IMG/VR virus record: IMGVR_UViG_2711768167_000005
Coordinates: 1-4,280 of that record
DNA: 4,280 nt
Strand: one strand, 5' to 3'
Origin: a virus
Taxonomy: Duplodnaviria; Heunggongvirae; Uroviricota; Caudoviricetes
Under the pieces are notes generated by a model, which did not search any database, was not told the origin of the DNA, and saw only the letters and a program-made list of their open reading frames with translations. Position 1 is the first letter of the stretch. Each line of letters starts with the position of its first letter. Position numbers and translations under genes: made by a program. Below are positions 893-1,313 of this stretch, one piece after another.

Positions 893-1090
893 TCAATACA
901 CAAAATCTGTTTTAAATTCATGGTTACATTCTGGACAGCATGTTTCGTAACCTTTTATTTCTTCACATGCCTGTTTTGCTCCAGAAAATTCCCAGAAATC
1001 TGGATCACAAAGCAGATCGAAATTGTGACCGCATTTTGGGCATTCGGTATCAAGTGACAGATTCCAGTAAGCAGTGGTGTTTTTATCCAT
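893..1090 (-). CDS. Small C4 zinc-ribbon protein (65 aa)
   Basis: Start trimmed from the track ORF 893..1132 to the ATG at 1090..1088, which follows the upstream TGA (1094..1092) by 1 nt and is preceded by AAAGGAG. Motifs C17-P-K-C20 and C52-P-E-C55 (CxxC...CxxC). TGA at 895..893. Confidence 0.55.
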   Translation of the reverse strand: MDKNTTAYWNLSLDTECPKCGHNFDLLCDPDFWEFSGAKQACEEIKGYETCCPECNHEFKTDFVY

Positions 1091-1091
1091 A

Positions 1092-1313
1092 TCAGTCTCC
1101 TTTACCCGCTGCTTTCTCCTGCTCTTTAGCAAGCCGCTCCGCTTCTCTGAAATCCCAATCCACTCGATGTGCTATATCAATTGCAGAACGCACGGTCCGT
1201 TCAATTAGCGTGTCCAGATTATCAATTGTCATTGCCATATCTGGATTGCGAGATAAAATCTCCGCCCTCTGAATCTGCCAGTTGTTGCAGGTTTCAAGTA
1301 ACGAGTTAGCCAT
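1092..1313 (-). CDS. Hypothetical small charged protein (73 aa), predicted helical
   Basis: Start trimmed from the track ORF 1092..1523 to the ATG at 1313..1311, preceded by AAAGGAAAG and separated by 1 nt from the upstream stop (1317..1315). The longer N-terminal extension would overlap the 132-aa gene out of frame. Confidence 0.55.
   Translation of the reverse strand: MANSLLETCNNWQIQRAEILSRNPDMAMTIDNLDTLIERTVRSAIDIAHRVDWDFREAERLAKEQEKAAGKGD

Follow-up and report, generated by a model that had tools for sequence, protein, structure and literature searches.

Two tiny accessory cassettes, one encoding a predicted acidic Cys4 zinc ribbon, in a mosaic phage-type Ea22 array

The two small genes analysed here, which encode a 73-residue helical protein and a 65-residue predicted zinc ribbon, are small accessory cassettes of a known kind in a mosaic array of Ea22-type genes. 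The case is an ordinary one. The apparent coupling of the two genes, a stop codon and a start codon separated by a single nucleotide, is, as judged from the pattern of its occurrence, a generic junction rather than a specific link between them, and it also marks cassette exchange at single-gene resolution. The same cassettes move among phages, phage-plasmids, and an integrative conjugative element (ICE). We slightly favor the view that they are two separate single-gene cassettes, lying side by side in an ICE-captured, phage-type Ea22 (exo-xis/'ea') mosaic array, and that each product works alone. The window, that is, the whole stretch of 4,280 nucleotides that was analysed, has all its long open reading frames on the minus strand in a tightly packed array. 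The features of the two small genes and their immediate neighbours are:

1092–1313, minus strand: 73-aa gene, ATG at 1311–1313 and TGA at 1092–1094; protein MANSLLETCNNWQ...AAGKGD
893–1090, minus strand: 65-aa gene, ATG at 1088–1090 and TGA at 893–895; protein MDKNTTAYWNLSLDTECPKCGH...CCPECNHEFKTDFVY
1040–1042, 1031–1033, 935–937, and 926–928, minus strand: codons of C17, C20, C52, and C55, respectively, the predicted zinc ligands of the 65-aa protein
1315–1713, minus strand: paralogue A, 132 aa, upstream neighbour; N-terminal module MITITKERLLTIQQWRETYGPGSNV..., ending ...AAMLQGKGK at the junction
469–882, minus strand: paralogue B, 137 aa, downstream neighbour; same N-terminal module, different C-terminal part

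The layout described in an earlier, sequence-only reading of the window, of two small genes one nucleotide apart between two paralogues, was confirmed. The joint reads TGA-T-ATG, in which the T at position 1091 is the lone intervening nucleotide, and paralogues A and B share a 145-nt 5' module, the copies of which at 1569–1713 and 738–882 are 93% identical. Paralogue B starts 10 nt past the stop codon of the zinc-ribbon gene, and a 10-nt gap between this stop codon and a gene starting MTT(I/F)T... is kept in most loci of the temperate-phage type. A near-identical paralogue-A gene directly abuts the zinc-ribbon gene in many loci. The same reading took both small open reading frames to be real genes, and this is supported by their numerous homologues and by strong purifying selection on each of them. 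The 73-aa gene has a dN/dS of 0.04–0.09. The comparison of the 65-aa gene with its homologue from a Klebsiella phage gave a dN of 0.097 with 31.5 synonymous differences in 35.5 sites, which is saturated, and that with a closer homologue gave a dN/dS of 0.17. Each ATG is preceded at a fitting distance by a consensus ribosome-binding site, AAAGGAGA or AAAGGAAA. RefSeq/PGAP lists both products as hypothetical proteins (WP_000360280.1 and WP_000013837.1). Two plus-strand open reading frames that overlap the region, at 812–1057 and 940–1272, were dismissed, and the conservation pattern matches the minus-strand frames. It is highly improbable that one or both of the small genes are non-functional hitchhikers or mis-called frames in a decaying array. 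Their very short length speaks for such an origin, as do the PGAP labels of partial or frameshifted on the 171-aa gene and on paralogues A and B; however, in addition to the purifying selection and the correctly spaced ribosome-binding sites, residues are invariant across hundreds of clusters, and the structure predictions of both proteins are confident.

The joint between the two genes is one copy of a junction motif of about 17 nt, AAAGGAGAnTGATATGG, which forms the tail of Ea22-type genes. Three copies of the motif are present in the window, and none are expected:

1087–1103, minus strand: junction copy 1, AAAGGAGACTGATATGG, comprising the last codons with AGGAG, the stop codon (TGA) of the 73-aa gene, the single spacer nucleotide, and the zinc-ribbon start codon (ATG)
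1310–1326, minus strand: junction copy 2, AAAGGAAAGTGATATGG, where paralogue A ends and the 73-aa gene begins
2222–2238, minus strand: junction copy 3, AAAGGAGAGTGATATGG, where the 199-aa Ea22-like gene ends (...AGIRTKGE) and the 171-aa gene begins

Over about 17–20 nt, the junction is built of codons for ...(A)GI(R)KGE/KGD with an embedded ribosome-binding site AGGAG, which is Shine-Dalgarno-like, followed by TGA, one nucleotide, and ATG. The C-terminus of lambda Ea22, ...DAGIRIKGE, is the same junction peptide. Copies 1 and 2 are 223 nt apart and bracket the 73-aa gene. In three other loci (L066, L072, and L096), exactly this 223-nt unit is absent, and a paralogue-A-like gene leads to the zinc-ribbon gene through a single copy of the junction. 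TGA-N-ATG was found at the zinc-ribbon ATG in 54 of 60 loci, the six exceptions being virulent Klebsiella phages. The open reading frames upstream of the zinc-ribbon junction fall into 14 sequence clusters and belong to at least 13 unrelated families, with tails that read ...GIRIKGE, ...QGKGD, or ...ASKESE. Since the junction is used by at least 13 upstream families and occurs three times in the window, the joint is not specific to the pair. The sequence patterns suggest that the junction acts as a stop, ribosome-binding, and start unit that would permit translational coupling along one long transcript, and as a short patch of (micro)homology for the swapping of single-gene cassettes. Recombination at the junction may have placed the 73-aa gene between paralogue A and the zinc-ribbon gene, or removed it from other loci. 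The coding strand of the window contains no promoter-like site, and its terminator-like sites are at chance level, which fits one long transcript.

Neither co-occurrence nor order of the two genes is conserved. In IMG/VR, the pair is adjacent in ten of the 41 loci with the 73-aa gene and in ten of the 63 with the zinc ribbon. Both proteins are at least 96% identical to those of the window in every adjacent pair, which suggests a single recent lineage. One hundred of 5426 complete E. coli genomes match the region; 37 of them contain the whole pair and 63 one half, and the breakpoints within the pair are at query positions 196–219, which correspond to the joint and its junction. The search of the phages collection gave no phage record matching both proteins. 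The zinc-ribbon gene is located downstream of Ea22/EaA genes in P22-like Lederbergvirus, upstream of a helicase gene in virulent Klebsiella jedunaviruses, and next to xis/int in temperate phages of Erwinia and Yersinia. The 73-aa gene was found among phages in HK140 and in Erwinia phage EhrS_49. Distant homologues of the zinc ribbon, from Lysobacter and metagenomic phages, lie amid small early-type genes, methyltransferases, DNA polymerase, helicases, or a diversity-generating retroelement, and no recurrent partner gene was seen in their neighbourhoods. In Lysobacter enzymogenes (CP110813; L114, 2651–5204), the zinc-ribbon gene lies two genes downstream of such a retroelement, which has bAvd and a reverse transcriptase with three Lcl_C-domain target genes.

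These counts do not bear out the coupled micro-cassette proposed in the sequence-only reading: the two genes assort independently, and the joint is of the generic kind. An obligate module of the two products, for instance a heterodimeric regulator or an anti-restriction pair whose co-translation in stoichiometric amounts is ensured by the one-nucleotide spacing, is quite unlikely. Such a module would account for the adjacency with its TGA-T-ATG joint and for the presence of the identical pair in the ICE, in prophages, and in a P1-like phage-plasmid, and members of both families do reside together in other arrangements in a few loci. In L030 and L031, the order is reversed, with the zinc ribbon at 2378–2572, the 73-aa gene at 3001–3219, and one gene between them; L042 has the 73-aa gene at 3001–3192 and a distant zinc ribbon (49% identical) at 3979–4173, 787 nt downstream. 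Such co-residence could come from a common niche in the array or from a loose functional connection. However, the majority of loci with one gene are without the other. Many genera of Enterobacterales have the 73-aa family but no zinc ribbon; conversely, virulent Klebsiella phages and Lysobacter and metagenomic phages have the zinc ribbon but no 73-aa gene. The generic joint and the apparent single recent lineage of the adjacent pairs also argue against the module.

The 65-aa protein is, by its sequence, a member of a widespread family of stand-alone, very acidic Cys4 zinc ribbons. It matches phrog_4173 (family HMM, E=9.4e-28) and has a net charge of -8, a pI of 4.35, and no arginine. The word-indexed search recovered only close relatives, and the exhaustive HMMER search (E<=1e-3) reached the wider family of 207 clusters at 50% identity. 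Nearly all members stand alone and are 60–70 aa long, the median net charge is -9 over about 67 aa, and 99% of members are negative. The CPKC and CPEC motifs noted in the sequence-only reading are at residues 17–20 and 52–55 of the translation. In the alignment of 88 homologues (33–58% identity), W9, C17, C20, C52, and C55 are invariant and A7, L13, P18, D25, P53, and F59 nearly so, and the other three cysteines of the window protein are unconserved. All four knuckle cysteines are thus retained, in line with the reading of the protein as a Cys4 zinc ribbon. The AlphaFold2 (AF2) model (pLDDT 82) has two knuckle-bearing β-hairpins, formed by strands 14–16/23–25 and 45–51/58–63, with a short helix between them. 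According to the model, the protein belongs to the Cys4 zinc-ribbon class, with two conserved CxxC knuckles on hairpins, and zinc binding itself is predicted.

The zinc ribbon falls into no curated family: searches of Pfam and NCBIfam gave only generic zinc-knuckle matches below the cut-off, including YnfU and the Rad50 hook, and generic zinc-ribbon Pfam models have sub-threshold matches in about half of the family members. Sequence and profile searches of the PDB returned only generic C2H2 or zinc-knuckle noise, and all Foldseek matches among viral structures were to uncharacterised proteins (best E, 9e-3). The names given to family members in the source databases are mutually inconsistent guesses. 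In the longer members, which were examined for informative domain fusions, the N-terminal extensions vary in kind and contain no Pfam domain. Several unrelated small proteins (P0015, P0017, P0018, and one in L113 at 3001–3060) have the C-terminal ~20 residues of the zinc ribbon, ...ETCCPECNHEFKTDFVY, as their own ends, which indicates that breakpoints are also located near the 3' end of the zinc-ribbon gene. These chimeras, with half a zinc site, are possibly non-functional.

The 73-aa protein had been described as helical and charged, and the AF2 model agrees: it is a confident (pLDDT 92) α-helical hairpin, formed by helices 2–22 and 24–70, and it is acidic. The full-length protein matches phrog_10585 (family HMM, E=9.6e-43). 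In the alignment of 48 homologues, residues 1–63 form a highly conserved core, and the tails of the family are variable and often end in ...AAGIKGE or KGD. The tail of the window protein, EQEKAAGKGD, overlaps the junction motif. The protein is confined to mobile elements of Enterobacterales, in which the family was found in Escherichia, Salmonella, Klebsiella, Enterobacter, Cronobacter, Hafnia, Rahnella, Pectobacterium, and an Erwinia phage. The Pfam and NCBIfam scans assigned it to no family, Foldseek found no match to the hairpin in the PDB, and PDB searches by sequence and by profile yielded nothing beyond ribosomal eL8 noise. Neither of the two small proteins matches the Ead/Ea22-like family PF13935, and the 73-aa protein has only the C-terminal junction peptide in common with it.

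A chromosomal segment shared by 25 complete E. coli genomes matches the window with 99.5% identity. In NZ_CP178648, the segment is inside an ICE of the SPI-7/PFGI-1 class, in which the array is preceded by tRNA-Ser, ParA, DnaB-PI, ParB, DUF2786, DUF2857, and ParE-like genes, and followed by STY4528, PFL_4669, topoisomerase III, STY4534, SSB, and PilL2. Because ICE genes of the SPI-7/PFGI-1 type are on both sides of the array, the segment is not the prophage that it had been taken for. The phage accessory type of the genes, which had also been proposed, was upheld: the Ead/Ea22 domain (PF13935) is present in the neighbours at 2227–2826 and 3031–3243, and every gene of the array matches PHROG families without assigned function. 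In L003 (1–28237), the phage-type, Ea22/exo-xis-like array lies within the ICE between the ParB-DUF2786-DUF2857-ParE-like genes, with which it appears to be co-transcribed, and the STY4528/PFL_4669/topoisomerase III/SSB genes. A block of the zinc-ribbon gene, the 73-aa gene, and the paralogue was also found on a plasmid of about 97 kb (L118, NZ_CP026725.1 64832–77252), which carries phd/doc, an S24 peptidase, and a homologue of Pol III theta and is therefore assigned to the P1-like phage-plasmids. PLSDB contains 25 plasmids with the zinc ribbon, including four from Pseudomonas with less than 60% identity.

In RefSeq, the minus-strand genes at 469–882, 1315–1713, and 1710–2225 are called partial or frameshifted pseudogenes by PGAP; they are intact here (137, 132, and 171 aa) and have strong PHROG matches, for example to phrog_9263 with E=8e-123. 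The calls probably result from mosaic N- and C-terminal modules rather than from decay. The 199-aa protein (2227–2826, minus strand) is a mosaic of an Ea22 N-terminal module, the cysteine pair CSVCG...YACSG, a coiled segment common to lambda Ea22, KLNEQREYYEGVI..., and a C-terminal part with the P-loop GFTGCGKS, which has weak similarity to APS kinase and AAA proteins, and it ends in AGIRTKGE. The gene at 3423–3671 (minus strand) encodes an 82-aa protein with a ParE-like toxin domain (PF24732, E=1.6e-19) and overlaps the stop codon of the upstream DUF2857 gene (3668–4246, minus strand) by 4 nt. No accompanying antitoxin was recognised. The left end of the window (1–120, with a run of twelve C at 61–72) has many substitutions towards C relative to E. 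coli genomes that are otherwise 99.5–100% identical, for example TCCCCCCCCCCCGGG versus TGCCTCACCCTCGCG in the E. coli genomes. The substitutions rewrite the C-terminal half of the open reading frame with its start at 208, which continues beyond the edge of the window. They have the look of poor sequence quality at the end of a contig, not of biology.

If the two genes are separate cassettes, the 65-aa product would be a zinc-stabilised, strongly acidic mini-domain that acts by itself, and the 73-aa product would be a separate factor, an acidic helical hairpin that probably self-associates. Most likely, both bind a host or competitor protein early after the entry or induction of the element, rather than nucleic acid or each other. 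The extreme acidity of the zinc ribbon, its small size, its early or accessory position, and its spread over virulent phages, temperate phages, phage-plasmids, and the ICE lead us to infer a protein-binding factor that acts on a conserved host protein, although acidity alone is no proof of protein binding. Independent protein-binding factors are our best guess for the role of both products. The delineation of a large, very acidic zinc-ribbon family with its invariant residues makes this family a reasonable candidate for target-finding experiments. A bolder and rather doubtful extension is that the acidic Cys4 ribbons constitute a new, broadly distributed family with which mobile elements inhibit a conserved host protein, the hairpin being a second, unrelated inhibitor. 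The target would be, for example, a defence nuclease or a replication or repair enzyme, and the gene would be a plug-in cassette common to virulent phages, temperate phages, phage-plasmids, and ICEs.

Two other roles of the zinc ribbon were considered. It may be a restriction-alleviation or anti-defence factor that inhibits a host immune enzyme and aids establishment in new hosts, which we regard as possible, though with no great likelihood. A small, very acidic product of an early or accessory gene that is carried by virulent and temperate phages, a phage-plasmid, and an ICE would suit this role, and within the ICE the array is about 10–14 kb away from topB and ssb. Furthermore, a homologue was chosen for screening by an algorithm that selects phage accessory regions. 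This homologue, UDP0162 (ATI16514.1 of Klebsiella phage KpV79, 84.6% identical), is among 200 computationally selected phage accessory genes, and is flagged as accessory with the comment 'Zn finger' (Silas et al., bioRxiv 10.1101/2023.04.06.535777, Supplementary File 3). The genes were screened in wild E. coli strains for the triggering of cell death and for counter-defence, and the paper does not name UDP0162 among the genes with a phenotype (bioRxiv 10.1101/2023.04.06.535777). That it is not among the counter-defence or PCD-trigger genes in the ECOR strains is a weak negative, since the hosts and phages were heterologous. The anti-defence role is also disfavored by the lack of a match to Lar or to any PADLOC model, the models of which matched neither of the two proteins nor eight of their neighbours, and by the finding that no one defence or counter-defence gene was consistently associated with it in the loci seen. 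The main text of the paper on anti-defence genes in leading regions mentions neither ICEs nor zinc proteins, so that this analogy is speculation. Less likely still is a regulator that binds nucleic acid or RNA polymerase, in the manner of P2 Ogr, Mu Com, or the TraR-like lambda Orf73, and tunes early expression or the decision between lysis and lysogeny. The Cys4 motif, the weak sub-threshold matches to TFIIB-type and other zinc-ribbon models, and a genomic niche that is the same as that of Orf73 and Ea8.5, the zinc proteins of the lambda exo-xis region (PMC8614690), are consistent with such a regulator. However, a net charge of -8 without any arginine, with a family median of -9, is ill-suited to it. 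The hhalign probabilities are 3% against lambda Orf73 and 8% against Ea8.5, no zf-dskA_traR match was obtained, the predicted fold is based on β-hairpins and is not the helical TraR fold, and the family is also present in virulent phages, which have no lysogeny decision. 

Several known small proteins resemble the two products in part. A search of main texts for the WP accessions, PHROG ids, and peptide strings returned nothing. Lar/RalR are likewise small cysteine-containing proteins of the recombination- or integration-side accessory region of lambdoid prophages; in contrast, the zinc ribbon has knuckles at 17–20 and 52–55 with a helix-containing spacer of 31 residues. The Pfam scan gave no match to PF14354 at E<=0.1, so the decision of the sequence-only reading not to assign the protein to the Lar/RalR family stands. 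YnfU, a zinc-binding protein encoded by the Qin prophage, has about 55 aa and is weakly similar in the region of the second knuckle. The YnfU family models (PF23499/NF038384) were rejected with scores of 14.2 bits against a cut-off of 27 and 19.3 against 36, and the weak match is present in only 21 of 88 members of the zinc-ribbon family. The top structural neighbours of the zinc ribbon were LysW and the ZitP zinc finger; together with anti-TRAP and YacG, these are zinc-stabilised, mostly acidic domains of 50–65 aa that dock onto a partner protein. UDP0162 differs from the window protein in its setting, as it comes from a virulent myovirus, where a different gene, of 76 aa, precedes it and a helicase gene lies downstream.

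The exo-xis region of lambda has tiny early-left genes beside ea22, which encode the two-helix, ~63-aa Orf63 and the C4 zinc proteins Orf73 and Ea8.5, and its small proteins modulate host or phage development (PMC8614690, PMC7093339). The window resembles it in the kind of locus, with small genes next to Ea22-type genes, and in the Ea22 end peptide. The zinc ribbon differs from Orf73 and Ea8.5 in its β-hairpin-based model, which is neither TraR-like nor homeodomain-like, and there is no detectable homology. The TraR/DksA type of Orf73 was rejected (hhalign 3.2%, no PF01258 match, β-rich predicted fold), as was the homeodomain/zinc-finger family of Ea8.5 (hhalign 8.2%, over 12 residues around one knuckle only). 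Similarly, the 73-aa protein is like Orf63 (DUF1382) in shape only, with an hhalign probability of 3.2% and no Pfam match. Lambda was not among the tblastn matches of either protein.

Conserved boundary sequences and mosaic shuffling in lambdoid and P22-like phages were reportedly described by Juhala et al. in 2000 for HK97/HK022 and by Clark et al. in 2001 for HK620. Boundary sequences and mosaic gene shuffling in these phages are also treated elsewhere (PMC9836094). The junction of the window is like those boundary sequences in being short, conserved, and coincident with mosaic breakpoints. It differs in that the unit is a single 223-nt gene plus junction, and in that the junction itself consists of a stop codon, a ribosome-binding site, and a start codon. 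The array also differs from the lambdoid and P22-like mosaics in its hosts, being housed in an ICE and in P1-like phage-plasmids besides phages.
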